From IMG/VR virus record IMGVR_UViG_3300035204_001773, positions 45,212-109,211 of that record: 64,000 nucleotides of DNA; one strand, given 5' to 3'. This DNA is from a virus. The notes beneath the pieces are model-generated. The model saw only the letters and a program-made list of their open reading frames with translations, had not been told where the DNA came from and did not search any database. Positions 6,142 through 47,900 of this stretch are shown here, piece by piece. Every line of letters starts with the position of its first letter. Position 1 is the stretch's first letter. Made by a program: the position numbers and the translations under genes.

Positions 6142-6142
6142 T

Positions 6143-7324: not shown

Positions 7325-7345
7325 TTTTTAAATCTGTGTTATCAT
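7317..7345 (+). promoter_or_regulatory. sigma70-type extended -10 promoter, probably giving a leaderless transcript
   Basis: TTGACT (7317-7322), 17 nt, TATCAT (7340-7345) with TG at 7337-7338. ATG follows at 7351. Confidence 0.65.
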
Positions 7346-7350
7346 TAGGT

Positions 7351-14420: not shown

Positions 14421-14421
14421 A

Positions 14422-15087
14422 TTAATCTGTAAGTTTAACTACAAAGTCAGTTTTTATATCTCCGACGGAAGTTTTAAAAGTTAATTCGTCAGAATAATCT
14501 CCCGTAGTAATATTTTCTCTACCCGAGACAATTATGTTCGCGTTGTTCTCTATTTTAATGGGCAGATTTGTGGTTGAAAAATTATCCCCGCCCGAAAAGA
14601 CCCCACTAAAAACGACGAAGGGCAAATTTGCATTATTATTAGCTACATTTATATTAAGCGTACCTGTTTTGGAAAAGGAATCGCCCTTCAATATTGTGTA
14701 GCTTGGCTTGTCCGAAGCAACATAGAAACTAGTAGTAGCTGTACATCCGCTAGTATTTATATAAAAATTGTCAATAACATTCTTTTCTTTTACTCCCACG
14801 TAGCATATAGGTACGCCGTCAATAAAATATTGATAATTTGAATCGTAAATATCTCCAGAAAGAGAAAAAGATTGACTAGGTAAATAAGAATATATATATC
14901 TATTTTCTGGATCTATAATTTTCCCCTTATCAAATGAAAATTCTAACGATCTTCCCGTGCCCTCCCATTCACCAGAAAACCCCAGAGCCCCAGTACCCTC
15001 TATATTGTCAAAAGTAAGGCCTGACGCATAAAAAGATAACCGCTTTGCGCTACCAATTTTTCTATTGTTATTTCCAGAGAATTCCAT
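14422..15087 (-). CDS. beta-rich virion structural protein (hypothetical)
   Basis: 221-aa ORF, Ser/Gly/aromatic-rich, coupled to neighbouring tail genes. Confidence 0.5.
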   Translation of the reverse strand: MEFSGNNNRKIGSAKRLSFYASGLTFDNIEGTGALGFSGEWEGTGRSLEFSFDKGKIIDPENRYIYSYLPSQSFSLSGDIYDSNYQYFIDGVPICYVGVKEKNVIDNFYINTSGCTATTSFYVASDKPSYTILKGDSFSKTGTLNINVANNNANLPFVVFSGVFSGGDNFSTTNLPIKIENNANIIVSGRENITTGDYSDELTFKTSVGDIKTDFVVKLTD

Positions 15088-26900: not shown

Positions 26901-29900
26901 TTTGGCCTGCTCTAGAAATTACGCCAAGCCTTTGGTTTCCTTGGGTTCCGTATTTTTTGGCATCCATTTTGCGCTCGATTTCTACTTCTGACAGTTCTTT
27001 CCTTGTTAATCTAGAATCGCCTTTGCCCTCTTTGCCTGTAAAAATATTCTTATGGAGTTGGTCCATTAATTTTGCTCCCGAACCTCTTGCTAATATATTG
27101 CCACGATGATCTCTTACAATAGACTCTCCATCATCGCCTTCTTCTACTTTAATTGCTCCCGTGGCCGACAGGTCTTGCACAAAGCTTCCTCGGGTTATAG
27201 CCTCCACTCTTCTGCCTCCAGACATATAATATGTTTTCCCATCAGCTGCTTTGTATAATTGGGTTTTTTTAATGGTCTTACCAGTATTTTTGTCGACATA
27301 TTGCTGAGATACTAATTGTGTTTCTCTAGCCTCGATTTTCTCTTTCATAGCAGGCATCTTCTTCATCTTCTCTCGCCACGCTTTGATGGCAGCTTCATTT
27401 GCTCCACCCCTTTTAAGCATCTCTTCTGCATCAACGAGGTTACCCTCCTGCATGGCCTTGTGATATTTACCACCCATTCTACCTGCTCTAGATTGTTCTG
27501 CTATCGCTTTTAAATCTCGTTTCCTCCCCGCTACTTCATTTTGAGCATCAATATTTGATTGCATTCGGCCGGGCATCATTGTCTTATCAATACCTTCATA
27601 CCAAGATTGCCCCATTTGTTCTCTTTCTAAATGTTTGAATTGCGCTTTAGTAGCCTCTTCTCTCATGTCTAATTTGTTCATTTCTTCCCCTACTTTAAAC
27701 ATCATCTTTACTTCGTCAGGTAAACCGGGAATATCTTTCATCTCCGACAAAATTTTATTACGCTTGGCTGTAGCTTCAGGAAGCTTTCCAGAGTCAAGTT
27801 CTTCTAAAGAAGCAAACCTCCCGCTCGCTTTTCTCATTTCCGCTTGCTGCGCGAACAATGCGGCTGTTCTTTGCGCAAATCCCTCTGGGTCATCTCCCAT
27901 TCCTAGAGAGGATAGTTTGTCATACCAAGCCAAGTCGGCATTATTTTTAATGTATTCGGCTCGTTCAGATGGTTCCATCGCTGCGAGCTCTTTTCCTGAC
28001 TTGCCAGTATAATGCTCAAGCCTATCGCTCATGTTTCGCATTTCTTCGGGGGATATACGAAGCAACTCTTTCTCCATATCAATCAGTGCGCTACTATCTG
28101 CACTCGCTGTTGTCCCAGTTTGTATTAAGTTGCTCATTAATTTTTGAGTTGATGCAGCTTTCTCTGCGTCGTAAATCAAAGCGGCGTTTTCTCCTTCTCC
28201 AAAGTTTAAAGATAAACCAAATCTATTTTGAGAACCGGGTTGAGTTAGTACTTCATCCCATAGTGCGCTAGCTAATTGTTGTCTTATTCCGTGATCTTTT
28301 TCTCCCGCTCTAGCTATTGCAGCATTTATTTTAGCGCCAGCCTCATCGGCTTTCATGTCTTTTTGACGTCTGAAATGATCAGCTAAAGTGGCCGCTGTCA
28401 TTGCGACCCATATTGCCGCACCAACTGGACCACCAGCCAACAATGCTGGTCCCATAGCTAAAATATCTATACCCAATCGGGTTCCAGTAGCAACGCGATC
28501 TTTTTGTAATTGGAGTTGGTGCATTTCCACAGTAGCATCAGCCCCATCAACCCCGCCTTTTTCCATGCGCCCCTGAAGACCTTCCATTTCTTTTGCGTAA
28601 GCTTTATTTACAAAATGAGAACCAATCATTTGTCCAACTATACCAACTCCAAGACCACGTATTGCTGATGATCCTCCAAATTTCTTTGCCATCCCCTTGG
28701 TCCACTGGCCAGACTTACTTGCTTTCACTGATTTCCATATGCCGCCTTTTTTCGCTACCTTGTCTAATCCCTCTCCCGCTTTTTTGTACGCGGCACCTCT
28801 TAACCCCTTATCGCTCGCATCTGTGAAAAAGTCTGCAGCTTTCTTGACGGCGCTTTTCTTTGACCCGCTCTTTACGCTTTGTTCTATTGCGCCTTCGGCC
28901 AATTCTTTAGCCGCTCTTTGCTGAGCTTCTTTTTCCAAGCCCCGCATAATCATATACGTGCCTACCCCATAACCTCCATACGTAGCTATTCCTTCTCCTA
29001 TTTTAGCTATGGTTTTATTCTCGTTTTGCATAAGGTATTTACCAATCCAACCAGTAGCTAAACCAGCGCCAATACCCACAGCACCGCCCCTAAGATCTCT
29101 ACCTATAGTGCCTCCACCGAATTTTCCTCCTCCAAAGCCCCATTTTTGTTTACCCATCTGCCACATCTGTTTATAATTGTTGCCGAATAACGTGCGGGAC
29201 ATTAGCCCTCCTTGCTCTGGGCGATAAAGACCGATCTTATGGGAAAGTTTTCCTATGGTTTTCATGGCAGTCTTAACCTTGCCATCTCTTCGACCTTCTA
29301 TACCTTTTGCTAAATCCTTGGAAGCTGCATCTAATCGCCGGGCGAGGAGTTCCTGATCTGCTTTCACCTTCATGTTTTGCTCTGTTTTCAACGCATCAGC
29401 TTGCAACCTTCCTAGCTGCGCATTCCGCTGTTTCGTGGCGTCCGCAGACCGCCGCCCCGGATCCTTCTCTATCGCTTGTAATTGCTTTTCTAGCAACCCT
29501 GAGTCCGGCCCCGCCTTTGCCATCATCAAGCGTCCCAGTTTTTGTGCTCCGCTGCGTCCGGATTTGTCAGGCGGTAAAGCGGCCACCTTATCCAGCGGGG
29601 TATTTTTTCCGCCCTCAACGTGTTTGGTCCAAGCCGCTTTAAGCATGTTCTGCCCCTTACTATAAGACATTGAGCCATTACCGACTTTTTTCTCAATCCT
29701 CGCTCTTGTTTTTTCAAACTGTGCTACGGCCTTTCTAATGTTAACATCGTGCGGATTACCAAAACCCATTGCCCCCTTTCCAACGCCCTTAAGGCCCATT
29801 GCGCCTGCTTTATATCCTCTATTAGCTAATGCAAATTTAGCCTTCCCAGCGACCTTAGGATCACTGGATCGGGCATTGGTTTCTAATTTAGCGCGGGCCT

Positions 29901-32900
29901 TACCTCCTTCTTGCTTGAAATCCGGATCTAGTGCCTTCATTCTTTCAACGTTTTGTTGAGACAGTTCAACAACGTTCCCTCTTGCGCTGGGTCCCCCGCC
30001 CGCACGGCTCATGGAACGGTCCGTGAGTATAGCTGCTAACGAACTCACCCGACTGGAAGGCGCTCTCACACTACCAGACCACTTGCCACCAGCCCCATCA
30101 TTTGCTGATCGACCAACAGAGAAATTAGCCGCTTTATTCATTGCTGAAAGCTCTCGAATCCTCAGTCTATTCTTTCCGTGACCTTTTTTCGCACTCTTAG
30201 TTTGCTCAGCCAAACTCGCTATTACTTTGTCGAAACTCCTTGCGGACCCCAGTTTCTTCAGCAGCCCCTTTTTCTGAAGCAACTTTATTTGATCGTCAGT
30301 AAGACCTAATTGATCTTTTAAAACATTTGGATCCTGAAGAGCTCTTCTAGCAAGCCTTCTGTCTTTGGCGGCTTCTTTCCGCTCATGAGCTTTTCTTTCC
30401 TTGGGGGTCATCGCCTGCTCCCTCGCACCCTCAGTAATCCAAGAAGGTACCAAGCTTCGTTTTCCTGTCCAGAAATTTTCTCCCTTTGCAACCAATGGTA
30501 ATTGAGATGCAAATCTGCCCGTCATTCTTCCTAGCGCTCCAAACATTCCCTCTCGCTTACCTCCGGGTAATCCCGTTCTTGCATCTGGGAAAAGACGCCT
30601 CATCTCTTCTCCTCTACCACCTTGTCTGCCTATTTTAAATCCTTCCATGACAGGGCTTTTCTGAAGGTGCTTGTTCATTAATCCGCCGAATCTGGAAGGT
30701 AAATTTTTCAACCATTCCTTGGTAACTCCAGCACCTATTCTAGCGCGCCTTGCGAGCCACTCAGATCTAGACATGTTATTAGCAGCAGGGCCCTTTTTCA
30801 ATTGTTCCATTGGAATAGTGTTTCGCACCAATCGGCCACGGTATCCAGAGCCTTCTTTTGAAAATTTCATGCGCTCGGGCTTATCAAGATTTAATGCTCC
30901 AGCCTTCCACCCCTTCTTAATGTCTGCGAATGATTTACCGCCCGCTTCTTTTAATCTACCCGGAATACTACCCAATTTCTTCTTCAGGTTTTTCATGTAA
31001 TCCATCGCCAAAACACTTTTCATGCCCGCTTTTGTATATGCATCGCGGGTTTTCATTTGGGCTCTTTGATTCTGTCTCTCTTCTGGAGAGATTTTTTGCA
31101 TAAATCTCCGGCCACGTTTAAAATTATCGTATGGTTTTCTTAATCTTTCTGCTAAAGTGGGTTTCTTTTTATCTAATCCACTAGTATCAATCTTAGTGCC
31201 TGATGTAGCTGCTTGTAATTGTGCGGCTTGCTTTGGGGTACCAAATAAGTTCTTCAAGAAGTCCCCGGCCTGAATAGTTTTTATTCCTAATTTAGTAGCA
31301 AGACTTCTAGATTTAAATTCCGGCATAGCCATCAACGAATTTCTCTGGGGGCCGGATAATTTACCGAAAAATCTCCTAGCTCTGCTGAAGTCACCACGGA
31401 ATTTTTTGCCCTTAGAAACCAGTGGGGATCTATTAAAATCAAAGAAAGATGCAGCAGCTTTATGTACGCTACCCACGGCTTTACCAACTGGCGAAGATTT
31501 TACAGTCTCTCCCGCATCAACTAATCCAGTGGCGATTTGATGCTGTAATTTTTTAACTAGATCTTGTCCACCCTTTATGCCTGCTCCGAATTTCCGCATT
31601 CGGGAATGTTCTACTTTACCTTGGAATCCGCCGTGCTGCCTTCCAGTAGGTTGGCCAGCACCAAATCTATATCCCTTCACAAGCTCAGTCTGATTAAACC
31701 TAGCCTTCATAGAATTAAGTTTACTCTTCGACCATGTCTTAAAATTATCCTTACCTCTGCCAATTCCGTCTACTAAACTGGTGCTTAAATTTTTGAAAGT
31801 TGCACCAAGTTTTTGCGCCCCACTAGCTTTAACCTCTGGGGCACCGGGCATGGCAATGTTAAATTTTCTCAAATTCCCGCTCTTGAACCCATGCTTAAAG
31901 TCTCCCAACATCCCCTTAGCGCCCGCATGACCCTCTATAATTTTATTTAAGATGGGGGACTTTTGCATGTTTACTAAGTTCTTGGCAAACTGTTGTCCTT
32001 GACCTAATGCAGATTTAAGATGTTGCACTGAAGCTGCTGCACCCTTACCGAGACCCTCTGTTCTTAAAGCTGAGTCAGTTGCTACAAAGGCTCCCTTTGC
32101 TCCTCCGGTATATCCATGCTTAAAGGCTCCCACTTGATTCCAGAAGTTCGTCTTTACGGAACCGGTAGCTTTACTAACTTGAGACTTTATTGATTTAGCT
32201 AAGGACTCTGCAGATCCCACGCTCGCTCCGATTCTTGTCATTCTATTTCTAGATTTTATTTGTTCCTTTTGATTCTTTATCTCATCGAACTTCATCTTTC
32301 CAGTAAATCTTTTACCTCTTGAAAAGTCTTGCTTGTACCCCCTTAATGCTTTAAGAATTGGGGATCTGCTTAAATTAGTAAACTTTTTACTTAAGTCTGA
32401 TATCTGTCCTCCTGTAAATTTCACGCCTCTATACAATGGAGATTTCCTCAAATCAGCAAGGCCAGTTAACATTCTTCCTGCTCGAGAATTAAAAAATTTC
32501 TCGCTCATTTTTAAAGCCGGTTTGTTTGAATCAGCTTGGATTGTACCCATGTTTTTCTCGCCATGAATACTTAGCGCGGTGGTTTTCGGAACTCTACCAA
32601 ATTTCTCTCTCGCAAAATTCATAAACCTTTCTTTAAGTTGAGAAGGATGTACATTCTTTTCTCTAAGCAGGTGAGGAACGGCGACCTTCAAAAAGTCTTT
32701 CGCCATAACCCAATTACCTTTTGCGCCCATTCTTTCGGCCATTCTTTGAGTACTATATGTTTTATACTCTTCATCAATAGAACCAAGTTGAACCCTGTTT
32801 CCTATTTCTTTTATCATGCGCTGATAACCGGCCTGACCCTTAACCATTTTAAATAGCTTTTGACGACTGAAGCTTCCATCTTTATTTAAGAAGCGCTTAT

Positions 32901-35900
32901 CACCCGGTTTAATTTCTATATCATTCATCTGTTGAGACAACATTTTGGAAAATTGATCAGCCATCTCGGGCGGCAAACCACTAAACGCATTCATTGCGAG
33001 GCGACTTGGGCTAACGGTTACGCTTTTGCCCGTTGCAAGAGCCTTATTGTAAGCCTCTCCCAGACCACCCATAACCTGCCTATGTGTCCGCTTCATCCAT
33101 GCCCTTTTCGAGAATCCGCCCTTCGTTGACGTTTTTGCCTGATCCATCAAGCTTTTGTCAGGAGCAGTATCGCCCAGTCTCTGCCTCATGAATTCATCAG
33201 GAGACATAGTACCCATTCTATGCTCTGCTGCGCCACCCTTTTGGCCGACGCCTGCTTGTTGTTGAGACAACTCCACTTGCGCACCCATGCTTTTCAATAA
33301 GTATTGACTCGCTGCATTCTTTGATGCTTCACCACCCAAGTTTTGCGCTGCCTTGCCACTCTCTAATGCGTGAGTCATTTCATGAACTATTAAACCTCTT
33401 TGCACATTTCGTGCCATTTGACCAGCGCCACCTTTTTGTTTTCCTGCTTTTACAATTTCATCATCAACCACCACCTGATTCTTCGTGGCATCCCACCAGC
33501 CACCCCAGCGTGCTCCACTTGCACCACCGGGTTTGTTAGTCGTATTTTGCTTAGTTATATCCCAATTTTGTTTAACTGCATTAGCGTAATCTTTTTTGAT
33601 ACTTTCCCCAAGAACCCCAGTGGGAGATCCAGTTTTCTTGGCCATATTTTGCTCGTATAGATTACTTAATTTTATTGATTCGAACATGGCGTATCTTTTA
33701 GACATACCACCGACAAGTTTTCCTATCTTACCTTCTGCAAAATAATTAGTAAATAGCTTTCCGTGAAGTTTATTCAAAGCGCCTGCGCCCATACCTTTCA
33801 CCTTGTCTACGATAGGCCCGCCAATTTTTCTAGCACCTTCCGCCATTGACGACTTCCAACTTCTCCACGTATCTTTTATATTAAAGGGCATTTTATACCT
33901 AGAAGCCATGTTCATGGCTTCTTTAATGCTCATGCCAACGCCGCCAAGTCCCGCAGATGTTTTCTTTCCTAAATTAGTAAACCACTTAGCCGTGTTCCTG
34001 ACCCAATTATTTTTAGAATCCTTCTTTACTTGTGCGGCTTTCTTCGGTTTTTTCTGCTTCACCTTTTCTGGTGCGTCTGTTAAAGCGCTCCCCATAAAAT
34101 AAGGAGACAAGCCTGCGTAAAATGCGTTCATAGCTCTCCAACTATGCTCTTCTTCTCCTGCTAGATTAATCGCTTGTCCCCCCATGGGAGTATCCAATAC
34201 CATTTGTTTTCGCGAACCACCAGTGCCAAGGGGTCCACCGCGTGCGCCAAACCATGTACTATGATGACCACTTCTTCTATCTAGAACATTAGCTACGCCG
34301 CCTCGCACGCTTGTGCCACCGGGCAAACTATCAATGAGGCCCCTAGATCTCCCTTTTAATAGATCGTCGTAAAGATCTAGCATGTCAAGTTTTTCTTGGT
34401 TTGTGAATTTGGTACCACCCATTCCAAGCTTGTTCCATATATCCGCTTGGTATACTTGCCCGAAGCTACCCGTGCCCGGAACAAATCCACCCGCTGCGAA
34501 CGACATGGGAACCATTCCCTGCGCGTAAGTTTTTCTTCCGTGGTCTACGCGCAATTTACCTCTATCTTGTAACCATTTTCGTTGATCTTCATGAAGAAAT
34601 CTTCCTGTAGCGGGATCAAACCCAACAGGACGACCTCTTCCAGCGGGCATTAGGCTTGCTCCGCTAAGATTAGAGGGGTCTCCAAGAGTTCCATCAATTT
34701 TAGGGTCACGCCCACCGGTTTGGCCAAACGCCCATATCGCCGTCCTTTCGTCTAGCCCGCCACTGTCACCAAGAGCACCCAACTGGTAGGCAGGTATACC
34801 TGTTTCTAACGAATACAGATAACGATACGCTCTTTTCCAATCCTTGGGGCCATAATATTGTTGTATATATCTTCTAGTTAATTCTCTCTGCGCCCTTGGA
34901 TCTCTTCCTGTTTCTGGATCATTCCTTAAACTTGTAAGATATTCTCTTATTGGGGATAAATTAGCATAAGTATTCCCATCCGAACCCTTGACAGGTTTAT
35001 GAGCACCACCACGACCCATCATTTCTTGCTTTGTCCTAGCTTTAGAAGCGGCGGCTATACCCCCCAATGAGCCAGCGTTGATTCCCCATTTATTTGCTTC
35101 TTCTGACCATTTTTCTTTTGGGTTATTTTTTTGAATGAAAGAGTACATCAAGCGTGTCCACTCTCCGGAGTTTTTAGCTATTCCATTACTCTGTAGCATG
35201 CCATGAAACTCATTAATGGAAGTTCCAGAAGAAACAGATACGCTTGGCTGCGAGGGTGTTCTCAAATGGTATACCTGATTTCCCATTTTTCTAGCTCCTC
35301 GAACAAATTCGCTTCTAGTTCTTCCTCCTTGTTCGGGGATATGCAAAAAGCCGGGGAGATTTTCTTTTGGCTGCCCTAATGTAAAAAATTCGTTTTGCCC
35401 TCGAAACAAACTAAAGTTGCTAAGATTACCTTTTCTGATTTCTTCTTGTTCTGATTTAACTCTGTCAATAAAATCCTTTGTGTTATTCATGCCTACAGCG
35501 CCCATAGGCATGTTCAGAGCGATCTGAGGAGTTAAATTTATACCAGTACTACTTTTGATCCTCTGTTTAACGTTATCATATTTTTGCCAATCGAGGACAT
35601 TGTCTGATGTGAGCTCGGTGTGATTAACAATATCTGGATTTCTAGCAATAGCATCATGCCATTCAGAGTACCACTTTTCTAATTTGTCATATTTTACTTC
35701 TACTTTTCTAAGCCCATCTGTTGAAGGAAGCAAATCAGGAGATGGAGCAAAAACCTCAATTGGAGAGGGGGATCCTCCAGCAGCCAAGCTAGGAACCTTA
35801 TATGTAATTTTTTCTCCGGGGGTATACCCATCAGAAGCTACCGTGTAAGGATTAATTCCCCAAGCCGCTTTTGATCTTTGCTTGTGTGCCTTGCCAGCTT

Positions 35901-38900
35901 TACTAAATTCAGGAGGATTAATAAAAGGTTGACTTATTCCGGGAACACTAACAACGCTTTCAGCTGAGTTATAAGTAACATTCCCAACTCCAGAGATTTT
36001 CATATTTTTTATAGCGCCAGCCCTATATCCCCCCTCTAAAGCTTGCGATCTTTCTATGCTTGCGCTCAGTCCGCCACCACCGGGGACAAATCCATGAGCG
36101 GCTCGCGATTGCTTTTCTCTCAAAGCCTCTATTTCGCTTTCTGTTTGTCTTAGTCTTGCTCTTATTGGCCCCCTGTCTCGTTCATCCGCTGCTTGAAGTT
36201 CATTTTCTATTCGTCTTTTTTGTGCTTGTAATTGACCAAGCTTTTGGTGGGCTTGTAAATTTTCGTCCAATGTTTTAGCGGTTTGAGTGGCAACTCTAGG
36301 TTTTTTAACTCTTTGCCCTATTGAAAATGGAGAATCCTCTCCGTCTCTTTGTTCTCTTGCCGCTTGATCGAATACTCCTTGTAATCCACGAGCATGTGTT
36401 GAGGATATTCCAAATTTTCGCCCCGCGCCGGGTGCTTTAAGCATGTTAGCTATATCTGCTGCACTACCAGCGCCCTCGGTTTCAAAAATATTTTTTAACG
36501 TTCTCTTTCTCTGTTTAGCATCCATTCCTCCCATGGCGGCCATCATCTGTGGATCCATTGCGAGTTGACCTACTTGCATATCTGCATCTCGTTTTGCATC
36601 TTTCAGTTTCTTTTTGTTCGCCTCTCTATCGCCTTCTCTTTCGAATTGATCATACGCATCTTGCGCCCCTTGAACGCCTCTTCTTGCTGCTCCCATATCA
36701 GTAGAAGCGCTCGTTAACGCGGCTTGTGGATCGAAGTTAATTGCAGAAGCTAAATCTTTAGGTAATGACCCTAATCTTCCATCAATAGATTTTAATTGCT
36801 GCAACTGTTGCTTGTCTATAGCACCAGTCATGAATTCTTCATCGAATACATTAGCGACACTTTCTTCTGCTCTCCCAGCTTCACGTCTCATACCAGCGAC
36901 AACTCCGCGTGGAGCCCCTGCGGCTTCCGCTTGATCAGCCATCATGTTAAGCTGATTTGATCTGTCCTTACCCATTTGTTTAATGAAATCTCCTCTAAAT
37001 TTCATCAGATCCGGGAACTCTATCTGTAGTCTTCTTTGTACTTCTTCGGCGGTTTCAACTCCACCCCCTGCTTTCACCTGAGCCTCTTCTCTTCCTCCAA
37101 ACAAACTTCCACCCATCAGTCCCTTCAATCCTCTGAGCATTTCCGCAGTACCTTTTGCTTGTTGCCCTTTAAAATCAGCCCCAGCTTCTTGGGTTTTTTG
37201 CATACGTATTAATCCCTCTAGAAACCCTTCTATATCAGCGGTTTGCTTATCTGGATCTAAAAGTCCATCCATTCCTCCAAGCATCGAAACGTCACGCTTT
37301 CTTTGTCTTTCTTGTTTCTCAAATTCGAAAGCTTGTTTTGCTATATCAATCTGTGCTTGAGTATTTATACTTAATTCTTTAAGTTGTCTTAATACCTTCT
37401 GCCCCTCTTCTCTACTGCTTCTTACTAATCTATTTATTAATTTGGGCCCCAACGCGCTAGTGACGTCAGATCTTTCTGTAAATTTCTTTATAGCATCTGC
37501 GGTTTCTGTTGCGCTTAAATCTTTATTTTTTTCCATCATAGCAGTGAACTCTTGAGAAATTCTTCCTATGTCATCTGCCTGTGATCCCTTTTTCTTTTCT
37601 TGAAGTTTGGTTAGCTCACTTTGAAATTCGGAAAGCTGCTTGCCTCTTGCTCCTCTGGTTGCGTCTTGAGCCTTCGTAAACTGATCATTGCGAATTCCTG
37701 CCGTTTTAACTTGTAAACCAAAAGCGGACGCACCCATGGTGCCCCTTCTCATCATGCCCATGCCGCCCTTTAATCCTTCTATGTCGACCCTTCTTCTCGC
37801 GCCACCTTCAATATCTTTGATTTTTGTAACGAACATTAATGCGTCATTAAAATTTCGTTGAGCTTCCACGAACCCTTGTTTGGCTTGATCAAGAGCTTCT
37901 TTTAATTTTTCTGATTGTTTTCGAGCTTTCTCTCTCGCTGCATTACTTTCGTCATGTTTATCACTATTTTCTTTTTGCGCTTGAATTAATTTATCCATTT
38001 CTTTTGCGAGAATGGTTAACCCGCCCTTGCCTTCTAAATTCTGTATACCTTGCTGCGCGTTCGCATTAAGACTTAGGCCTGCATTTTCCAATATTGATAT
38101 GATTGCACTAGCATCATCGCCAGCGCTTTTAAGGCCCGGGCCTCCGGCTAATTTTGTCATGGCATCTCTATTTGAAAATGCACCTATCGAACTCAATACC
38201 TCCTTTGCATCTTCTTCAGCAGCCTTATTGTCTATCTTTGATCGTTTTGTACCAAAAGTTCCACCAGTTTCATATGGGTTGCCGAAATCCATCATGCCTA
38301 AAGTAAGACCTTCGGCAAGGGTCTTAAGGACTCCCGCATTGCCTTGCTGCTGTCTTTTGGTAAGATTGTCCCCGGCTACTTTCTGATTTCTATCTTCCTC
38401 TAGTCGCTGGCGAGCCTTTTCATAAGCTTCTTTTAATTGGTTTGCGCTTACAGCCATGCCCATGGCCATTCCTGCTTCTTCATCAATAGCGGTAATAGAA
38501 CCCATTAAGTCTAATAATTTCTTATCCAATCTTCGCATCGTTTCGAATGGGGCAGCGCCGTCTTGTTTAGCGGAGTTTAACTGGTCCCACGTAGACATAT
38601 ATTGAGACATGGCGTCATTTATTTCTGTATATTTTTCTTTAGCCGTCTCTGCGTCTTTAGCCATATCTTTCGCGTTCATCGCGATGTCTCGAATCCACGC
38701 GGTTGCTTTGTCTATACCAACGGCTAGAGCAGCCGCTCCGCCGACGACTCTTCCAAAAGTTCCCGGAAGGACAGCAACAATAGCAGAGAAAGAGTTCTGC
38801 ATCCCAACTAATGTATCTGTAACGCCCTTAGCTTCGGGCACAATTTCTCCCAAACTCATTCCTATCTGGGACATCATAAAGGATCTAGATAACTGATCCG

Positions 38901-41900
38901 AAGAAATATCAGAGTCTACCCTTTCTCTTCTAACGTCGGATAAACCCGCCGCTCCTATACCCACTTCTTCTCCAGCACTTCTCATACTTGAGGCGGTCAC
39001 CGTGGTTTTACCAGAAAGATTCGCTTTATCGCCTTCTACTTTTACTAATTCGCTTTCTACCTGCTCTAGTTGTGCCAACGTAACATTATATTCGTCAGAA
39101 CCTTTCTTCATTGTTTTCAAGGTTTTAACTAGAGCCTTCACCTCTTTTTCCATCGTTTTAACAGCTGGTTCTAAACCGCTCAACGGCGAACCGAGAACAC
39201 CTTTAGTTAGGTGTCCTCCGGCACGCACAGCTGCACCCATTTTACCCGACGTAAGAGTGGTTTCTTTTTCTTTTAACCAACGAGCGAATCCACCTTCTTC
39301 GTCATCATCAAGGAAATTTGGAATATAACCAGCCGCAGCTATTCCATAAGTGTTGGGATTTTTGCCTTCTTTTAGAGCTCGACTAACGCCTTGTCCAAGT
39401 CCTTTCTTTTCGTCAATATCGTTACCAACACCAAGGTTCAATGGGTTTGCGGTAATTCTTTTATCTTGCCCCAAGAAAATATGACTCTTCGCTTCTTGTC
39501 TGGAGATGTCTTCTCTAACTGATAAGGCATTTATTTCCCTTTCTTCTGCCTTTGCAACTTGCTCTTTTATACCCGGTGTCCATGCACTTCTTGTAAAATG
39601 TCCATCTGCAAAATTAGGAACATAACCTCGTGCGCCGTGTATTCCTCCAATTCTTTTTACTTCTTGTTCGCTTCTTGGAGAATGATGTTGCCATCCTCCC
39701 GCTGAAATTTTTTGTAATTCTTGGTCCGGACCATTCCAATGTTGTACATCGAAATAGATTGCTTTTTTCATTGCAAGATCTATAAGTCTAGCAACCGCTT
39801 CTTGTCCATTTCTGCCAGCGCCCAACTGCAAGCCAAGCCACCTCCGAGTCTTTTCTCGATTCATTAGGCGTTTCGTGCCATGTTTGGTTTCTCTTAAACC
39901 GCTCGACGCCTCACTTCTACGAGCAAGTTCACCTGCTGTGCCGGGGCTACCATCTGCAGGAGGAATCTCCGGCGCAGAACCGACCTCTTCGTCACCGGGT
40001 GTTAATTCTAACATGGCTCCGCGATGTTCTCCCCATCGTTGTGCGACACCCTCACTTCTACTTAATGAAGCAACTCCGGGTTGAGACTTTGTTCTAACGC
40101 TTTGATCAGCGAGCCACCCCTCAAAAGATCTTAGTGATTCTTCGGGAGTATTTCCTTCTCCGGCTTGTCTAGTTGTTGTTACGGTCTCTTGTTTCCAATC
40201 TGACCAACCCACGTTAGTGTAGGACATATCGGGTCTGCCATCTTCACCATATTGATATTCTCCTTCTTTGTATCCCCGAAAAAGATTTAGGAAGTTTGGT
40301 ATGAATCCTAAGCTCTTCATATTAGCTAAATTTTCTGGCTTAGCTAATTGTAAAATTCTTTCTACATCATTTATATTTGTAATTTTATCAAAGCCCTCAT
40401 CTAAAGTAGGAGCTTCAAAACGATTAAACATACCTTCAATAGCTGCATCTGGTATAGTTTTGCTACCGCCCTTGGCTTTTGTTAGTTCGGCTCTCCTCGC
40501 TGTAATCGCCTTAACAGCTGATATAACTTGCTGTTGTTTTTCGTCTGGTAATTGAGATATATCACTAAAGACTACCGCCTGTTTTTCGTACCCTTTAATA
40601 TCATTCTCATCGAACATATTTAAAGACATTGATCGTTCTCTTGCGGACATGTTTGTCATATCTACAGAAATATCTTTACCTGACTTACCAGCTTCCGCAA
40701 CCCTTTTGTCAAATTTATTTTGAATCTCGCTTCTAACTTGGCCTATTTTATCCCAAATTAATTTAGGTATCCAAGGCTGTTGTTCAGCTTTCTCTTCATC
40801 GTATTCTGGATTTATAACTGCTTTGCCATATTTAGGATGAGTTTGACCTAATCTAGTTCCCGCTGCGGGTGTCTCAAATGAGTCGTCATAAGTCAGTCCC
40901 ATGTCTTTAGTTACTTGATTGACTATGTCATCTCTACTTACGATGAAATCTTTCGGCGCGTTCTCTTTGAGCCAAGTTGATTTACCAACCCCCGGAGCAC
41001 CGACAAGTGTTCTTAATTTTCTCGCAAAGCTCGGGACATGTCCCCTACCAAATCCCATACCGCCCATGTCACCCGCTAATGCGCCCATTAATTCTCTATG
41101 AGCTTCTTGAGAAGACTCGCTTCGCCCATCATTAACGTCTCTCCCGTTAAATTTACTGCCCGGTCCCGCATTTATAAATCCACCTTCCCCAGCATGAGAT
41201 TCTCTTCTTCCTTTCAAATAAGCAGCGGCTTGAAAATGAAATCGCGTCCCGGCCCTTGGATCATAGGTTGCGGTCTTGCCTCCATCAGCACTAAAGGCAA
41301 CCGAATCATTTTTCAAATCTTGTCCTCTTGCCCACTTTTCAAAATTTGGGACAAAACCTCCTGCGCGACCCTTGCCCGTGCCCCCGGCTCGTTTGTCCAC
41401 GCCCCCCATCTGTAAATATTCCGCCTGTTCAGCCTCTGATAGATCACGCATTACTTGCTTCCGAATCGCCGCTTCTTCGTCTTGCTGGCTCATTCCATAA
41501 AGATTCACGCCTTTCCGTCTTAACGTCTGGCGTGCTTTTATCTCAAGTTGGTGAAAATGCTCCCTTCTATTCTTCCTATTTTTCTCGGTTTCTTCTCTTG
41601 TTGGCTGGATATTACCTTGTTCATCTATCGCGCCCAAACTCCTAAACTCAGGTTCATTACCCGTAAAGACAGCCTCTATAAAGCTGTGCCCCTTTGCTCC
41701 TATGCCAAAAATATTATCCCCACTAATTTTTGGACTATATTCATTAAAGAATTCTTTAAGGCTGTTAATAGAATTCTTGATCTCGTCTTCGTTCAACAAG
41801 TTGCCAAGGTTTCTTGCGCTCATCTTTTGGCTTGAGGGACGCTTGTTATCTTGTTTCGGAATAAATGATTTAATGGTTCTTTTAAGTCTTGCCCATAGAG

Positions 41901-44900
41901 TTTCTTCTTTTCTTATGAGATCTTTGTCAACCTCATTGCCCGTTGGCGTTGTGCCTTTAAATCTTTCAAAGAAATTCGGAATATTACCGGCATATTTCGC
42001 TACTAATTTTTTCTTTCCAATCCGCGCGATATGATCTTTATGCAGATTATTCGCTCGCACAAGAGCTTGATCATATGCGGGATCCCCTGATTTACCCGTT
42101 TGTAAAGCACTGATTTCAGACGAATTCAAACCCATTTCATAAAGATAATGAGGCTCTTTCGATTTAAGGTCATCTGAATCAAAATCAGTAGCTTTGATCT
42201 CTAGCCCCTGCATAGGCATCCCCGGGGTAAACATACCTCCAAATTCTTCTTGTATCCTTTCGTTAGATATATCTATTGGTTCTTCGCCAGCTGTATAAGG
42301 TTTTCCCGAGACTGTATCTTGTGGTGGCGTTCTTCCTCCTACCGTCGTCTTTTGCGCGGTAGTCATTCCATGTATCATGCCTTCCCATAATGCTCCAGCA
42401 AGATCCCGTTTTGTCCCAACTGGTAACTTCATGCCGCCTACAGCGAATTTGCTTTGCAACTTGCCAGTTACTTGTGCTAACTGATTCTTAAAGTCTGGAT
42501 CTTGAAGAGCAGCCTCTTCATCACCTCCGTATGATTGCTTAACCGTCATCCCGGGTCCAGCTTCGTCTATAAACCAAGTTCCCATATTTGGTAGGACGGT
42601 CCCAGAAACTTGTTGCTCTACTTTATCATAGAACCTATCTCTTATTCCTGAATCAAATACTTTCGGATCAAGTCCATAACGCTGAACTCTCGATGATTTG
42701 TGTCTAGAAGATATTTCCGAAGGCTCTTCTGCTGATCCACCAGACTGTCCCGGCGCTCTTGTGCCCATCGTGAGAACTGGGGTATAATGAGGCGCGCGTT
42801 CTCCTTTAGATAAATTTATTACCGTGCCATCTGCTAACGTAATTGTTTTGTCAGCAGCAAAATTAGGCACGTTCCCCCACGCGGCCATAGCTTGTTTATC
42901 TCCCATTGCGCCGAGTGCCGAGCCCTGAGCGCCACTCTTGTCAATATGATCTCTAACCCAACTAAGTTTTCTTTTTGGTCCCGTTCCCCTATTATCGCTT
43001 TCGTGAACGTAAGTTCCTAAGCTCGGCGCGTACCTCCATAAGGCGTTTGCGTCGTAATGATCTATTTGGCTTTCCTTCTTCTGCGCAGACCTTAAAGAAG
43101 TCGATAGCCCCTTAGTAGTACGCATTGAGCTAGCGAAACTTGGAACAAATCCTCCAGCAACGCGTTGACCAGTTGTTGTGTCGATCATGTCAGGATCAGT
43201 AACCACATGCCCCTTACCCATCTCTCGAGCTTTCTTTAATAATCTTACGTGCTCTTGGGATACGCTTTTCCCCTCGCGGCTACGATCTATTACTTTCTTA
43301 TCTGGCCCGAGGAGAAGATGATAGTTTCCTTCTGTTCTATCTTCGAAGTTGGGAACAAAACCTCCTGCTACTCTTAAACGAAGCCCTCTGGCGTGACTAA
43401 TAGCATCCTCGGGGCTCTTAAAAGTTTGACCTGTCGGGTTGTATTTCCATCCTCGAGTTGTTAAAGGGCTATCATAAAGAGACTGAACATCATTCATTTC
43501 AGTCATTCCCTCAAATGGCTCCTGTCCTTTAGGCCAATGAGGCTTGGGATGTCCTGCGTCCATCAAATCTCGAACCGTTAGCCTTGACAACCGAGAAACT
43601 TCCTCATCGTACTCGGGGTCGCCGGGATTCGCCGGTAACATAAGATAGCTAGGTCCACCATCGAATCCTCCATCCGGCTTATGATGTTTTTTCCATCCTG
43701 ATGGTCGTGCAAAATTTGGAATAAAACCTGAAGCCCTCTTACTCCTTTCTATTCCGCCGGGATTTGCTCCACGGTTAGCGAAAGGAGTTTCAAAAGTCTG
43801 CACTCCCCGAACCCCAGTCATATTTAATCTTTCAATTTCTTCTATATTAGCCTTGGCGTCATCATACAAAACTAACTCGGGACTTTTTCCTGCTTCTTTG
43901 GCCTTTTTGCTCATTCTAGCCATTAGCAAGGTTTTCTTTTGAGCAGCATTTAAATAACGCCATTGCCTACTTCCTTGCCCCTCTGGCCATCCATCTTCGC
44001 CTAATTTTTCAAACTGGCCATGAAATCTACCGCCTTGAATAAAATCTTTTTTTCTAACAAGGCCTACTTCAAGACCTGTCTCAGGATCAATTGTACTAAA
44101 GTCTGGATTATCCATAACCTTCATGTCGTTGAACATGGATCCGCTAGTTATAACCCTATCAACATTTACCCCTTGACTTTCGAGTTGTCTCCTGATTACC
44201 GCGTTTGTTCCCTCTCCTTGAGTAATGGCTTGACGTGACCCTGCTCCTCTAGCAGTCGCTACAGTGACTGGTGCTTGTGATGCCTTATAATCTTCTCCTC
44301 TACTTGTCAGGGTTGACTTCTTTACCGACCAAGGGAATGCAAAAGATCTACTTGGCATATCGGCGGGATATGTGCCAAGATTTTCATCATAGTCTTCGAG
44401 ATTAACTACTTCACCGTCTTCTAAATCTCTGGGCCTTACATAGTTAGGAACAACACGTCTTCCTCTATTTGAGGAAAGAAAATTAGGTACGTTACCGCGG
44501 AAAACATTATACGTTTTTCCCTTGTGTCTTTTTAAATCCGGTCTTGCTTTTTCTACTTCATCATAGAAAGCGGTATAATCTATGGGCGCATCTAACGTTC
44601 CCGCTAATTGCTCATGGCTTCTTGCGTCATCCCTGTGAGATGTTGATAGTCTAGATTCCCGTTGACCTCGCACTTCTTCTTGAGATTTGTCAAGACCAAT
44701 TAGCCTCTTGCTCATTCCAAGCACGTTACCGAAGAAATCATTATTAAGACTTTCCCCTCCATGAATTATTGCGAACTTATCCATCGCGTCGAATTGACTC
44801 TGGTTAGTTACCAGAACCCCTTTTCCTACGTTGGGTATTTTCTTATCAAGAGCTTTGTTGCCTGATTTCAAACCGGCGAAAGTAGATTTCCCTGAGCCAG

Positions 44901-47900
44901 CTGGCCCCATGACAGTACTCACGGGCTTGCCAGTTTGAAAAGCGTCATAAACCAATTCTTCCCACGAATCTCTGTCCATTTTTGATCTATCGAAATCGAG
45001 AACACCTCTAGCAAAATTTGGAATCATTCCTGAAGCTTTCAACGCCATACTGCTCGAATCAAACGCTGGAACATGCCCCATGTACTTCGGTAGAGCATTT
45101 ATGGAACTAGCTGTTGTCGCTAGTGCTTTTCTAGACTTTCGCTTTTCCTCTTCCTGTCTTCTTGTAAATAAAGCGTGAGAATGCTCCCATTGCTCTTTAA
45201 ATTGCCCCTCGTTAATAAATGAATTTATAGTATCTTTACTTATTTCGCCCCCCTCGTCTCCTGCTGTTCGAGAAAATTCGGAACCATGCAATAAAGCACC
45301 GATAGTTTTATCTACCCTTTCTTTATCCGCTGCCCCCATGTCCCCAGAGAAATACGAGTCTGGATCTAAGCCTTCTAATTCTAACCCAGCGACTTTTGCT
45401 ATTGGATTATTTTTTCTTTTAATATTCTCTTTAGATGATAAACCAAGACCTCCGTGTTTCGGGTCTCCACGCCTTATGCCAAACCAATCTTTAGACCCAG
45501 CGGTTTGAACTGTATTAACTATTCTAGAACCAAACTCGGTTGCTTCAAATAATTTATCAGCCATACTATTCATATTACCCTGACTCGTACTATTTTTGGC
45601 ATCTGCTAAAGGAGTTTTCACACCAAAGGTATCAGGGTGCCTAAGCTTGTGATATCCCCCATCTCGCCCTTCCATATAGTCCCATCTAGTAGAACTAGAT
45701 TTAGCAAAATCAGTATCATCATAAACTAAAGCATCCACAGACCCCTCGAACGCTCTACCAACTGCTTGAGCCATTTGCCCTGTTCCAACAACTTTATTTA
45801 CATATTTTTTGATATCAGCCTCGTCAGCTGGCGGTTTAAAATATTGATTTGCATATCTTGATACTTCTGCTCCAATTTGATTATTGATTGACTCTTGCGC
45901 CTCAGAACTATCCGGTGCTCTTTTCGCTGACAAAGCAGGAAAAGAAGCCTTTAAAGAAACCCCATAAGCTCCGAAGGTCTGTTGTGCTTTATCATTAAAT
46001 TTTACATTATAAACCCCCGGAGTTGGTGTGCGCTTACCCCCACCTTTATCAGGCAAGAGTATGGAAGCCATGTGATGAGCATTGACTACTCCTCCGGGTA
46101 AAATATCTGCTTGACCGCTTGCTCTTTTGAGTTGCTTTTTAATTGGGTCTAATTTTTCATTAGTTAAATCTAAATAAGTTCTTGGAATTTTTAATTTCTC
46201 TTTCTCTGCTGCCATAAAATTAGGCACACTGCCAACTGCTGTAAATTTATTAAACTCACTCTTCTTAACTTTCTCAATTGTTTTTTCTAAAACTTTTTGT
46301 ACCTGCGGTTTATACTTTGGTAAAATAGCTGAATCTCCACCCTTAAGCCCCTTGGGTTTAACGCCGTATCTCTGAAACAGTTCTTTAGCAGTAAACTCCT
46401 GCTCACTAGAATTCATTATTACGCGTTTACCATCGATCGTGCCCCTAGACATATGCGCTCTAGTTCCAGAGGCTGCCCCCATAGCTCTGGCCATCTTTGT
46501 TTCTTCTTTATATGGGTCATAAAAGAAGTTAGGAATATTGCCCGAGGCATTCCCGCCGCCGCCTTTCTTCCCGGGGACATCCCAACCACCGCCCTTCATA
46601 GGGAACATAACTCCTCCGCCAAAACTTCCAGTAGAATGCATTGTCTTAGCTAACATAGCAACAATTTTAGCTTGATTCGTCATTTCTCTATTCTCTGCTC
46701 TTATTTTTTCTAAAAGATCTCTATGAACATCTGCAAGAGATTTTGTACCTCGCATAATTTCTTTTAACATCCTCGGCTCTTCAGCAAGCAGTGAATTCAA
46801 TTGGGTTTGAATCCTCTGTTGGTCCGCCATGTGCTTACCTCCCCCGCTAATCGTTTTAAAAGCGTCTACGGCATAAATCCTAAGTTTATCAAATAATTTA
46901 AACAAAGCCATAATACCCACGGCAAGACCCGGACCTTTTAAAAATTCTCCGAGACCTTTCGACATTCCAGAAGAAAGCTTAGATCCCAGACTCTCTCCCG
47001 AAGCCCCAAGGTCGGTTGATTCTAAAACTGTATTTATGCCCGAAAGAACTCTTTTTATAGCGGGGGCAAGAGCATCTTCTCCCAGCTTAGAACCGGCTTG
47101 TTTTAAATTAGCCATGGTTCTATTAATTAAAGTGCTAAAGCTTTGGTTCAATTTTTCATTTCTCGCAATAGCTTCATCGGTAGCAGAGGTGGCAATACCT
47201 AAAGCGTTTTCATATATTGAAAATTCTTTTGTTAAATCACTCAAAGAAGCTTTTAAAATATTAATTTGGAATACGCCACCAACTAATTCAGCAATCTGAG
47301 CTTGTTGCGATTGCGCTAGGCTATCGTACTGCCTCGCTAAATTTTGCAGCACTTGCATAAGAGGCATCATTTGCCCGCTTTGCTTTTTGGTTTGCACGCC
47401 AATTTCTTCAAGTGCCTCTAAGACTCTAGGCCTTTGTATTCTTGTGAAAATAGTTTTGAACGCGTTACCAATAACATTACCACCACGAGCAGTAACTTGT
47501 TGAGTGGCCGTTATAACTGCAAGTAGTTCTTCAAATTTTACTCCCGCTCCAGCAGCCGTGCTTCCTACTCTTCGGATTGCTTCAGCAAGGTCACCAGAAC
47601 TCACGGCAAAAGCCTGATCAACCTGAGCCATCTTACTAATTATTTCTGTAGAATTTAGAGCCGCCCTTGAATAGCCGTTCATAGCAGCAGTAATCGCGTT
47701 TACAGCAGCGGCGGCATCTAATCCAGAAATTCTTGTTAGTATAAGAGCGTCTTGGGTCCTTTTAAGGGTTTCTTGCATCCCAAGACCTTGTCTTGCGAAT
47801 TCTCCAGCAGCAGTAGCCACTGTTTGGAAACTTTGCGCTGTGTTTCTGGCTACATCAAATAATGAATTTCCAAATTTAGTAAGTTGGTTTTGGCTAGTAT

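Follow-up and report, generated by a model that had tools for sequence, protein, structure and literature searches.

To our knowledge, very few enzymes fused to phage tape measure proteins have been described, the virion RNA polymerase of phage P23-45 being a notable example. The tape measures of T5 (pb2) and mycobacteriophage TM4 contain embedded wall-degrading domains that are used at infection, and most known examples of injected polyvalent proteins with several enzymes come from carriers packaged in the head. In Thermus phage P23-45, the 5,002-amino-acid (aa) tape measure gp96 has a functional virion RNA polymerase at its N terminus (PMC10770324). Polyvalent proteins are giants found in phages and conjugative elements, in which unrelated enzymatic domains follow one another in a chain; they are thought to enter the recipient with the DNA, and their processing by embedded peptidases has been proposed (Iyer et al., 2017; PMC5512222). 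Their carriers are head-packaged (MuF, N4 vRNAP-like) or conjugative, with no conserved inter-domain peptide described, and the same paper mentions neither tape measure proteins nor polynucleotide kinase (zero occurrences of each; PMC5512222).

Here we analyze a 64,000-nucleotide window from an uncultured marine phage, part of a 109-kb record that is 64% complete, in which a kinase related to polynucleotide kinases (PNKs) lies inside a giant tape measure protein. Like gp96, this arrangement places an enzyme in frame with a giant tape measure, and for gp96 action in the host at DNA entry has been proposed (PMC10770324). In contrast, gp96 has one N-terminal enzyme of another class and lacks both a repeated fence motif and a swappable-module array; its polymerase has been shown to be active and virion-borne, whereas for the kinase both properties are predicted. 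T5 pb2 and the TM4 protein likewise hold a functional domain inside a tape measure, but theirs are envelope-acting, single, fixed inserts, whereas the kinase is a cytoplasm-type nucleic-acid enzyme within an array of many slots. The closest homologs are of a different kind: free phage AAA_33 “predicted kinase” proteins (∼190–260 aa; PHROG 6931, 2071) are true homologs with the same insert and invariant residues, but are encoded by separate genes with their own leader and stop codon, without fence motifs and outside tail modules. We consider it likely that the locus encodes a catalytically intact PNK-like kinase from this free phage family of ∼230 aa, fused into a variable array fenced by motifs. 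The main features of the array, in window coordinates, are as follows.

23956–48189, minus strand: ORF of the 8,077-aa tape measure protein, a single stop-free frame that houses the kinase cassette.
39313–46542, minus strand: cassette array (aa 550–2959), with 15 strict fence motifs plus the variant VVPNY, and modules of ∼60–380 aa.
41044–41340, minus strand: upstream neighbor cassette (aa 2284–2382), unrelated to the module that precedes the kinase in L189, a related tape measure.
41026–41043, minus strand: upstream fence motif GHVPSF (aa 2383–2388), placed by the motif map; homology to L189 starts here.
40309–41022, minus strand: PNK-like P-loop kinase cassette (aa 2390–2627, 238 aa), identified by Pfam, PHROG, AlphaFold2, Foldseek and profile comparison.
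40291–40308, minus strand: downstream fence motif GFIPNF (aa 2628–2633), placed by the motif map.
39628–40290, minus strand: downstream neighbor cassette (aa 2634–2854), ADP-ribosyltransferase (ART)-like according to a language-model lead.
39331–39609, minus strand: “Domain B” (aa 2861–2953), which closes the array in nearly all relatives and has a fence motif on either side.

The ORF encodes a TP901-1-type tape measure protein, identified by PF10145 (PhageMin_Tail) at aa 114–301 (E 3e-29, 102.8 bits against a cut-off of 33.2). The phage is a putative siphovirus, an assignment based solely on this domain. The protein contains internal partial duplications. Its N-terminal scaffold of 549 aa shares ∼50% identity with 49 related tape measure ORFs from IMG/VR; as a single-sequence query the N-terminal domain found only one weak locus, and the family was recovered with alignments. 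Scaffold and fence motif together delimit a large tape measure family of uncultured phages, with at least 559 IMG/VR matches. The fenced architecture is seen in 59 plus 80 IMG/VR loci; relatives have 3–20 motifs, the first at aa ∼540–650. The 8,077-aa protein belongs to this family by its ∼550-aa scaffold, its modules fenced by G-[FY]-[IV]-P-N-F, and its terminal Domain B. No cultured-phage relative was found among 50,697 phage records, either by blastn with the 5′ end or by tblastn with the C-terminal 234 aa, and proteins of 4,442–14,135 aa gave no match. A metagenome scan with the three-cassette stretch returned no relative, none of the public sequencing runs containing the stretch is listed as RNA data, and Pfam and PHROGs gave no usable annotation for 13 neighboring ORFs. 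We found no paper in the literature describing a tape measure with fenced cassettes.

The fence motif has the consensus A-[AS]-x-G-[FY]-[IV]-P-N-F-A. Its core, G.[VI]P[NS]F, is found at 19 places in the tape measure, where 2,000 shuffles lead one to expect 0.011, a 1,700-fold excess, and is absent from the other ORFs of the 109-kb record (∼27,300 aa). The motifs are predicted to be unstructured peptides beside a folded module: in the AlphaFold2 model of Domain B the core is confident and both flanking motifs have pLDDT <60. The Domain B cluster has 58 members and is present in 52 of 55 tape measures, with no PDB sequence match, no fold match and no PHROG. A motif-free stretch of 4,890 aa (aa 2960–7851) separates the last array motif from a C-terminal motif cluster.

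This long stretch could be the mature ruler of a late polyprotein, whose cassettes would be excised at the motifs in the producing cell, where they would act or be discarded without ever entering the virion. Protease sites are usually unstructured linkers, as these motifs appear to be, and folded modules are too large for the tail lumen. We nevertheless regard such a scheme as quite unlikely. The N-terminal tape measure domain precedes the array, so excision would sever it from the ruler, and the C-terminal end of the ruler is unfenced in most relatives. No conserved protease was found; an HExxH stretch considered as a family-wide cis-protease was rejected because the region has no counterpart in 54 relatives. 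Moreover, the tape-measure-fused enzyme of P23-45 is virion-borne (PMC10770324).

The kinase cassette is the only one in the 8,077-aa protein to match a Pfam family above threshold, and just 1 of 54 cassette types from related tape measures has any Pfam match, which bears out its preliminary description as the clearest case of module acquisition. The enzyme content of the protein comprises one firm case (the kinase), one ART-like lead and one P-loop module, the other cassettes lacking a recognizable family. The ART-like neighbor itself (aa 2634–2854) has no Pfam match, and the upstream neighbor (aa 2284–2382) matches nothing among 54 related tape measures. Two further candidates were not upheld. 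Assignment of the cassette at aa 1252–1486 to the HAD family, despite a visible DxDET / LTAR / KK / DD pattern, is unsupported by Pfam, NCBIfam and PDB profiles. The first P-loop cassette (aa 1061–1230) falls outside the family of the kinase: it has no HMM match to it, and its PDB matches are at the level of the P-loop only.

The cassette had been described beforehand as exactly bracketed by motifs, and it does fit tightly between GHVPSF and GFIPNF: a single residue (A) lies between the upstream motif and the domain's first strand, and the domain end runs straight into the downstream motif. All strings quoted for it are present, in the order GHVPSFA, RKLRTLVGAPGVGKSTW, VSRDD, VDMTNMSARER, TIPDAAIEGMFNRFEAPTLDEGFDKI, MKSL, GFIPNF. 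The span first given, 40315–41025, was approximately right, with its ends off by one to two codons from those of the cassette. Scanned alone, the cassette matches AAA_33 (PF13671) with 36.6 bits (E 6.9e-9; gathering cut-off 27 bits); the score drops to 25.8 bits when it is scanned within a 4,000-aa piece. Its PHROG matches are phrog_6931, phrog_2071 and phrog_505, with relatives annotated as PNK or RNA ligase. AlphaFold2 predicts one compact domain (pLDDT 96.3; 234 of 238 residues at ≥90). The best Foldseek matches are the kinase domains of PNKP, C. thermocellum Pnk, T4 Pnk and Pnkp1, together with phage PNKs; among PDB entries, kinase domains of PNKP or C. thermocellum Pnk take all of the first 14 places (E from 2.5e-6 to 9e-5), with a TM score of 0.64 normalized to a 171-aa target. 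Lower-ranked fold matches are dephospho-CoA, adenylate, UMP/CMP and 6-phosphofructo-2-kinases. The hallmarks of stand-alone phage PNK-like kinases noted from the sequence are backed by domain, fold and profile matches.

The P-loop kinase fold is common to the cassette and to PNKP (PDB 3u7e, 1yj5), C. thermocellum Pnkp (4gp6, 4mde) and T4 Pnk (1ly1, 1ltq). These 5′-kinase domains align with it in the P-loop, the catalytic Asp after strand 2, the DxTN Walker-B block and the lid Arg, at an identity of 15%–20%. A family profile matches the PNKP kinase domain with E 1.3e-10, and the P-loop, RD, DxTN and E-P-P-T-L-x-E-G-F blocks all align. The catalytic elements lie as follows.

40975–41001, minus strand: P-loop GAPGVGKST (cassette residues 8–16), which aligns to the PNKP P-loop.
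40927–40938, minus strand: SRDD, with D31 invariant in the family, which aligns with NRD of PNKP.
40633–40665, minus strand: VDMTNMSARER, which aligns to VIDNTN...SR of PNKP, with D121, T123, N124 and R130 conserved in the family.

Within the P-loop, G8, P10, G13 and K14 are invariant across 57 family members. D31 presumably corresponds to D35 of T4 Pnk, the catalytic Asp that serves as general base after strand 2. D121 (a Walker-B-like Asp) and R130 are invariant and R177 is near-invariant, in alignment with VIDNTN...SR...NRFR of PNKP. Residues 2390–2627 therefore form a complete PNK-like P-loop kinase domain with intact catalytic residues. NCBIfam TIGR01663, the equivalog for bifunctional PNK-3′Pase, reaches 19.8 bits in the kinase part only, against a cut-off of 502.8 bits. 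The module has no phosphatase domain and is embedded in a virion structural protein, whereas the kinase domains of PNK and PNKP are soluble.

All family-conserved positions are kept in the cassette (9 of 9 invariant and 8 of 8 near-invariant), although the nearest free protein is only 47% identical. This retention of phosphotransfer residues despite divergence is the pattern expected of selection on catalysis, and the kinase is quite probably active. Tape measure length sets tail length, so that any insert alters the tail, and most cassettes have no recognizable enzyme family; a kinase fold kept solely for bulk or length, as a passive spacer with no enzymatic role, might be imagined on those grounds. 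We consider this very unlikely, since the cassette has kept all 17 conserved positions, every phosphotransfer residue among them, at 47% identity to free relatives, and they are identical in L189.

Relatives of the cassette are overwhelmingly stand-alone phage proteins of 190–260 aa, with 35%–47% identity and 91%–96% coverage. The 52 near-length matches span ∼156–255 aa, and the closest 30 are 175–255 aa long, 35%–47% identical and cover 88%–96% of the cassette. At E ≤ 0.001 the cassette matches 979 representative clusters; among the best 150 of these representatives none exceeds 928 aa, and most are ∼160–260 aa. At IMG/VR loci with a kinase relative, 56 of 56 relatives lie in an ORF of 138–646 aa that lacks the fence motif, the opposite of a family confined to tape measures. 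A search of longer proteins (418–2,000 aa) gave only a 592-aa fusion, itself without fence motifs. Searching with the cassette alone, the check proposed in the preliminary description, thus returned near-full-length stand-alone kinases. Some are annotated as PNK (Ruegeria phage RpAliso, Rhizobium phage RHph_I1_18), and some adjoin a gene for a CCA-adding/poly(A) polymerase-type enzyme (tRNA nucleotidyltransferase) or for a metallophosphoesterase, or carry an annotated fusion to such an enzyme.

The alignment of the stand-alone proteins runs from the P-loop strand through the last helix of the cassette. It was proposed that a whole free-standing gene had been captured: the entire catalytic domain is indeed present in frame, but the variable N-terminal leader of the free proteins (15–50 aa) is missing. 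In the tree the cassette pairs with that of L189 (100% support), nested in a clade of 15 rows (SH-aLRT 96) whose other 13 members are 12 stand-alone proteins (226–263 aa) and the 592-aa fusion. Capture of a free-standing kinase into the tape measure, in frame, is well supported by these comparisons, and is older than the split of the two tape measure lineages, so it is not necessarily an event in this phage. Modules are clearly mobile, which makes excision conceivable, and the free kinases might instead descend from cassettes released by tape measures. This reverse direction is highly improbable: hundreds of free homologs occur on diverse phage contigs against two embedded sisters nested among them, and the free proteins have their own start, leader and stop, with no motif remnants. 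The tape measure gene also reaches its lowest GC content in the cassette (0.377; mean 0.438, SD 0.027), a value typical for other genes of the phage genome; as a sign of stand-alone ancestry this is weak evidence.

We screened ∼129 of the at least 559 IMG/VR matches for the kinase, and it occurs in only one other tape measure, L189, where it occupies positions 13964–14680 of the plus strand, is 68% identical and has the same residues at all 17 family-conserved positions. With presence in only ∼2 of 129 related tape measures, the kinase does not count among the core functions of the system. Homology between L189 and the 8,077-aa protein starts and stops exactly at motifs, the pairwise alignment showing no similarity before the upstream one. 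Exactly at the downstream motif of the kinase, L189 has an extra 196-aa cassette and a second motif, and the shared cassettes stand in a different order in the two proteins. Among the remaining cassettes, only the ART-like downstream neighbor is highly conserved with L189, at 75% identity. Kinase and neighbor are thus closer between the two proteins than the scaffold (47%), which fits cassette exchange. Because its nearest relatives are free-standing and a related phage has it in a different slot, the kinase is a swappable module, and module shuffling at the fence motif is well supported by these alignments. The array would then be a set of slots, with modules bounded by the unstructured A-[AS]-x-G-[FY]-[IV]-P-N-F-A peptide; a free-standing phage kinase of ∼230 aa would have been fused in frame into one of them, and modules would be gained, lost and reordered at the fence peptide.

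The record is an uncultured, incomplete contig and its protein has the internal duplications noted above, features that could suggest in-frame junctions created by chimeric metagenome assembly. We hold this to be extremely improbable. A contig from a different study (run X3) spans 40242–41204, crossing both motifs and the whole cassette, and its 963 bases show 4 differences; the stretch is intact in two further assemblies, which may be the source. The motif-kinase-motif unit is also present in L189 and in a Tara scaffold, and a stop-free frame of 24 kb is not a chance product.

T4 Pnk Arg38 contacts the acceptor nucleotide. The cassette has no equivalent of this residue, with Val three residues past D31 (SRDDIV), and it has a family-specific insert of ∼60 aa between the catalytic Asp and the Walker-B block, where PNKs bind substrate. 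The substrate could therefore be something other than a polynucleotide, although PNKP also lacks that Arg, which is thus not defining for the wider PNK family. An active kinase with a small-molecule substrate (nucleoside, nucleotide, or a compound related to NAD or signal nucleotides), perhaps acting jointly with the adjacent ART-like cassette, would accord with the breadth of the AAA_33 family, with the lower-ranked matches to small-molecule kinases, and with kinase and ART-like cassette being the two modules best conserved with L189. The 109-kb record (64% complete) has no match to the RNA ligase family PF09414, and none to PF09511, for which the control matched nowhere either, making that blank uninformative; with no RNA ligase found there, a pathway of end healing and sealing is not documented in this phage, which again suits a small-molecule substrate. 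We judge such a substrate rather unlikely, since the strongest fold and profile matches are all to polynucleotide kinases and the C-terminal E-x-P-T-L-x-E-G-F block is common specifically to PNKP. The PHROG annotation of the relatives as PNK or RNA ligase, and the tRNA nucleotidyltransferase or phosphoesterase genes near some free homologs, point the same way. The cassette may, with slightly less than even odds, phosphorylate 5′-OH ends of RNA or DNA, for example in healing tRNA or other nucleic acid cut by host defense nucleases.

By analogy with described systems, we lean slightly toward a kinase that is incorporated into the virion along with the tape measure, exits the tail into the host at infection, and acts before phage gene expression. 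The lumen of a siphophage tail is ∼4 nm wide, and three folded 27-kDa domains cannot sit side by side in it; the kinase module would have to travel unfolded or sit elsewhere. Its release by cleavage at the flanking motifs is a tentative suggestion. A broader scheme, in which the fence is both a plug-in site for any free gene and a cut site used after ejection, perhaps via its near-invariant Asn, to release a set of enzymes (kinase and ART-like) at time zero against host nucleases, we consider doubtful.

The kinase is the best-anchored module of a design different from those described before: a many-slot tail protein, fenced by one peptide, that accepts ordinary phage genes. With identifiable free ancestors, intact catalytic residues and a second phage in which it occupies another slot, it is a good experimental entry into this system, offering an assayable enzyme, defined expression boundaries and two natural contexts for testing whether the fence is cut. 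If delivery is real, these phages would import nucleic-acid repair or modification before transcription, which would change the picture of early counter-defense, and the array would offer a candidate natural scaffold by which phage tails could be loaded with proteins.

The source virus record (109 kb, 64% complete by CheckV) encodes, in a single open frame of 8,077 codons, a protein with a PhageMin_Tail domain (PF10145, E 3e-29) at its N terminus, which identifies it as the tape measure protein. Public runs containing the stretch are seawater and marine metagenomes. The two features considered here are:

23956..48189, minus strand: tape measure ORF, 8,077 codons, single open frame
40309-41022, minus strand: kinase cassette, aa 2390-2627 of the tape measure protein

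The short peptide that fences the cassette, G-x-[VI]-P-[NS]-F, occurs in 19 copies in the tape measure protein, versus 0.011 in shuffles, and is absent from the remaining ∼27,300 aa of ORFs of the genome. The span from aa 550 to aa 2960 contains fifteen strict copies and one variant; a group of five is at aa 7852-7985. Codon usage differs among the copies (mean pairwise identity 51% over 33 nt), so what is conserved is the peptide and not the DNA.

Scanned alone, the cassette exceeds the AAA_33 gathering score, at 36.6 bits, and is a member of that family; all the strings quoted in the preliminary description are present. Its PHROG matches are annotated ATPase, polynucleotide kinase and RNA ligase. 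AlphaFold2, given an alignment of 57 relatives, predicts a single compact domain (mean pLDDT 96.3; at least 90 in 234 of 238 residues), with the first strand starting at residue 2 and the last helix running to residue 233, such that virtually no linker separates either motif from the fold. In the PDB, Foldseek ranks highest the kinase domains of mammalian PNKP, Clostridium thermocellum Pnkp, T4 Pnk and Pnkp1, and in a viral library polynucleotide kinases of phages and giant viruses. The family profile matches the PNKP kinase domain (E 1.3e-10) across the P-loop, the catalytic Asp (SRDD versus NRD), VDMTN (versus VIDNTN), the arginines and the C-terminal E-P-P-T-L-x-E-G-F block. The cassette retains all nine invariant and all eight near-invariant positions of the family. 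From the model and these matches, the domain probably works like a polynucleotide kinase, and we predict an enzyme of that type. Unlike classical polynucleotide kinases, it has an ∼60-aa insert after the catalytic Asp, common to its free-standing relatives, and it lacks an equivalent of Arg38 of T4 Pnk. It falls far below the requirement of the NCBIfam bifunctional PNK-3'Pase model and is not a bifunctional Pnkp.

A whole free-standing PNK-like kinase gene had been proposed to be captured in frame between the motifs, with the prediction of full-length matches to stand-alone kinases of 200-230 aa; such matches did come back and support capture. A near-length search returned 52 proteins of ∼156-255 aa, the closest 30 having 35-47% identity, lengths of 175-255 aa and 88-96% query coverage. 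Run exhaustively on 1.84 billion cluster representatives, phmmer found 979 matches, the best 150 of which are all at most 928 aa. At all 56 IMG/VR loci with kinase relatives, these occupy ORFs of 138-646 aa, mostly 220-260 aa, and the fence motif is absent from every one of the 56 ORFs. Cultured phages also contain matches, with annotations of polynucleotide kinase, predicted kinase or poly(A) polymerase fusion. The free proteins align with the cassette from the P-loop strand through the last helix; what they have in addition is a variable N-terminal leader of 15-50 aa, missing from the cassette. In a maximum-likelihood tree the cassette pairs with one embedded sister (100% support), and the pair is nested in a 10-row clade (85%) and then a 15-row clade (96%), whose other members are 12 free proteins (226-263 aa) and one 592-aa fusion. 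Within the tape measure gene, GC content is lowest in the cassette, more than 2 sd under the gene mean, a value usual elsewhere in the genome. A separate origin is compatible with this, and amino-acid composition is an equally good explanation.

The genomic contexts of three free homologues are mixed, two of the three relating to RNA ends: one (L009:7588-9084) is near a CCA-adding/poly(A) polymerase-type gene, one (L038:8185-8886) near a calcineurin-like phosphoesterase (metallophosphoesterase), and one (L013:10632-11276) immediately upstream of a T4-type prohead core protease S77.

The kinase profile matches none of the first 54 related tape measures and one of the next 80, at aa 1486-1724 of locus L189 (IMGVR_UViG_3300030329_006605). 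A Tara Oceans scaffold, possibly not an independent one, also encodes the L189 protein (99.97% identity). Identity between the two kinase cassettes is 68%, versus 47% for the N-terminal scaffolds. Pairwise alignment shows no similarity before the upstream motif and continuous similarity from there to the downstream motif, exactly at which L189 has an additional module of 196 aa, followed by a motif of its own. Beyond this insert, similarity returns at 75% through the next cassette and ends at that cassette's downstream motif; in every case, then, the breakpoint falls at the motif. Two other cassettes common to both proteins (46% and 37%) differ in order. Taken together, these comparisons show that one slot of the array is filled by a PNK-like kinase domain, complete and conserved, that descends from free-standing proteins and moves as a unit.

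The cassette downstream of the kinase (window 39628-40290, minus strand, aa 2634-2854; L189 aa 1933-2144) has the highest identity of any part common to the two proteins, 75%, and is separated from the kinase in L189 by the 196-aa cassette, which is unrelated. It has no Pfam match; a protein-language-model search gives no more than a lead, placing it nearest NarE, Scabin-like and pertussis-S1-type ADP-ribosyltransferase clusters (score 0.93, 139 shared features).

Marine DNA from a different study (run X3) provides an independent view of the junctions. A 1,712-base contig spans window 40242-41204, with both motifs and the whole cassette, at four differences; beyond the kinase, 170 bases of the ADP-ribosyltransferase-like cassette (window 40071-40242) are replaced, in frame, by 143. 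The motif-cassette junctions are not an assembly artefact. A low-depth contig of 197 bases from X3 carries a related kinase start (window 40955-41020) with different upstream sequence, preceded by a different motif copy, FDRGFIPNF, by back-translation of the loose end; it hints at a third kinase context and is too short to count.

The array belongs to a larger family. An alignment of the motif with domain B, the near-universal last module, retrieved 59 IMG/VR loci, and one of the N-terminal scaffold had at least 559 matching stretches, 80 of them retrieved. All retrieved loci encode giant tape-measure-like ORFs with the first motif at aa ∼540-650 and 3-20 motifs each. Across 331 copies, the motif has the consensus A-[AS]-x-G-[FY]-[IV]-P-N-F-A, in which G and P never vary and 317 copies have the N. 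The 258 array modules fall into 85 sequence clusters, most of which, other than domain B (52 of 55 tape measures), are rare or unique. Only one of 54 representative modules has a Pfam match of any kind, so the kinase stands out as readily recognizable in a repertoire that is mostly dark.

Domain B (window 39331-39609, minus strand, and relatives; ∼75-90 aa; consensus ...AIxRE..AGV...NPxGLxVxNxRDEPxGxxQGIxRA...) closes the array in those 52 proteins, always between two motifs. Modelled by AlphaFold2 with both, its core is confident and the motifs are below 60 pLDDT; in these predictions the motifs behave as unstructured linear motifs, not parts of folds. Domain B, which may be the key to the motif's function, has no sequence or fold match despite its confident predicted core.

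Two other cassettes of the array recur in relatives. Relatives of one (aa 1252-1486, window 43732-44436, minus strand) are present in five or more other tape measures, among them L189:12953-13666, L104:8372-8884 and L086:7338-7775. These carry D-x-D-E-T ... L-T-A-R ... Q-K-K ... D-D, resembling the four HAD phosphatase motifs; the first is D-Y-D-E-N in the window copy. Searches of Pfam, NCBIfam and PDB profiles returned no HAD match. The first P-loop cassette (GPAGSGKST; aa 1060-1231, window 44497-45012, minus strand) belongs to a separate module family, present in 10 of the first 55 tape measures compared and in L189, with no Pfam family and undetected by the kinase profile.

The 8,077-aa gene seems to combine two tape measure units, by in-frame fusion or duplication. 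A partial second scaffold copy (window 35770-36576, minus strand; aa 3872-4140) corresponds to residues ∼375-665 of relatives, that is, the end of the N-terminal domain and the first cassette, and the C terminus carries a second domain B with five motifs (window 24295-24567, minus strand; aa 7875-7965). For the region between, aa ∼4200-7700, BLAST finds no counterpart in 54 related tape measures. This region contains an HExxH sequence (HEMTH, aa 4936-4940, window 33370-33384, minus strand), which we considered as a general motif-processing protease and rejected: as it is not conserved in those relatives, a motif common to hundreds of proteins cannot have it as general partner. None of 13 neighbouring ORFs scanned has a convincing PHROG or Pfam match. 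A 2,104-aa ORF upstream of the tail genes (window 52078-58392, minus strand) has weak matches only, including one of its C terminus to a Hoc-like head decoration family (E 8e-4).

Tape measure proteins sit in the tail and exit first at infection. This early exit is also discussed in PMC10770324, and Thermus phage P23-45 shows that an enzyme fused to a tape measure can be virion-borne and active. By this precedent and the tail location of tape measures, the kinase would probably enter the host ready-made, with the tape measure. A weak point of this reading is that the tail lumen has no room for three folded 27-kDa domains side by side; storage of the module would have to be in unfolded form or at another site. 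The closest structural and profile relatives of the cassette phosphorylate 5'-OH ends of nucleic acids; with some free homologues beside RNA-end-type genes, this makes the healing of nucleic acid cut by host nucleases our leading guess for its role. Weak points of this prediction are the family-specific substrate-binding region and that no RNA ligase was found in the virus record, which is 64% complete.

The nearest conceptual parallels are the fusion of a polymerase to the P23-45 tape measure and the polyvalent proteins described by Iyer et al. (PMC5512222), who mention neither tape measures nor polynucleotide kinase. In our literature searches, no paper described a tape measure array fenced by a motif. 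The kinase is the most testable module of this undescribed plug-in design.
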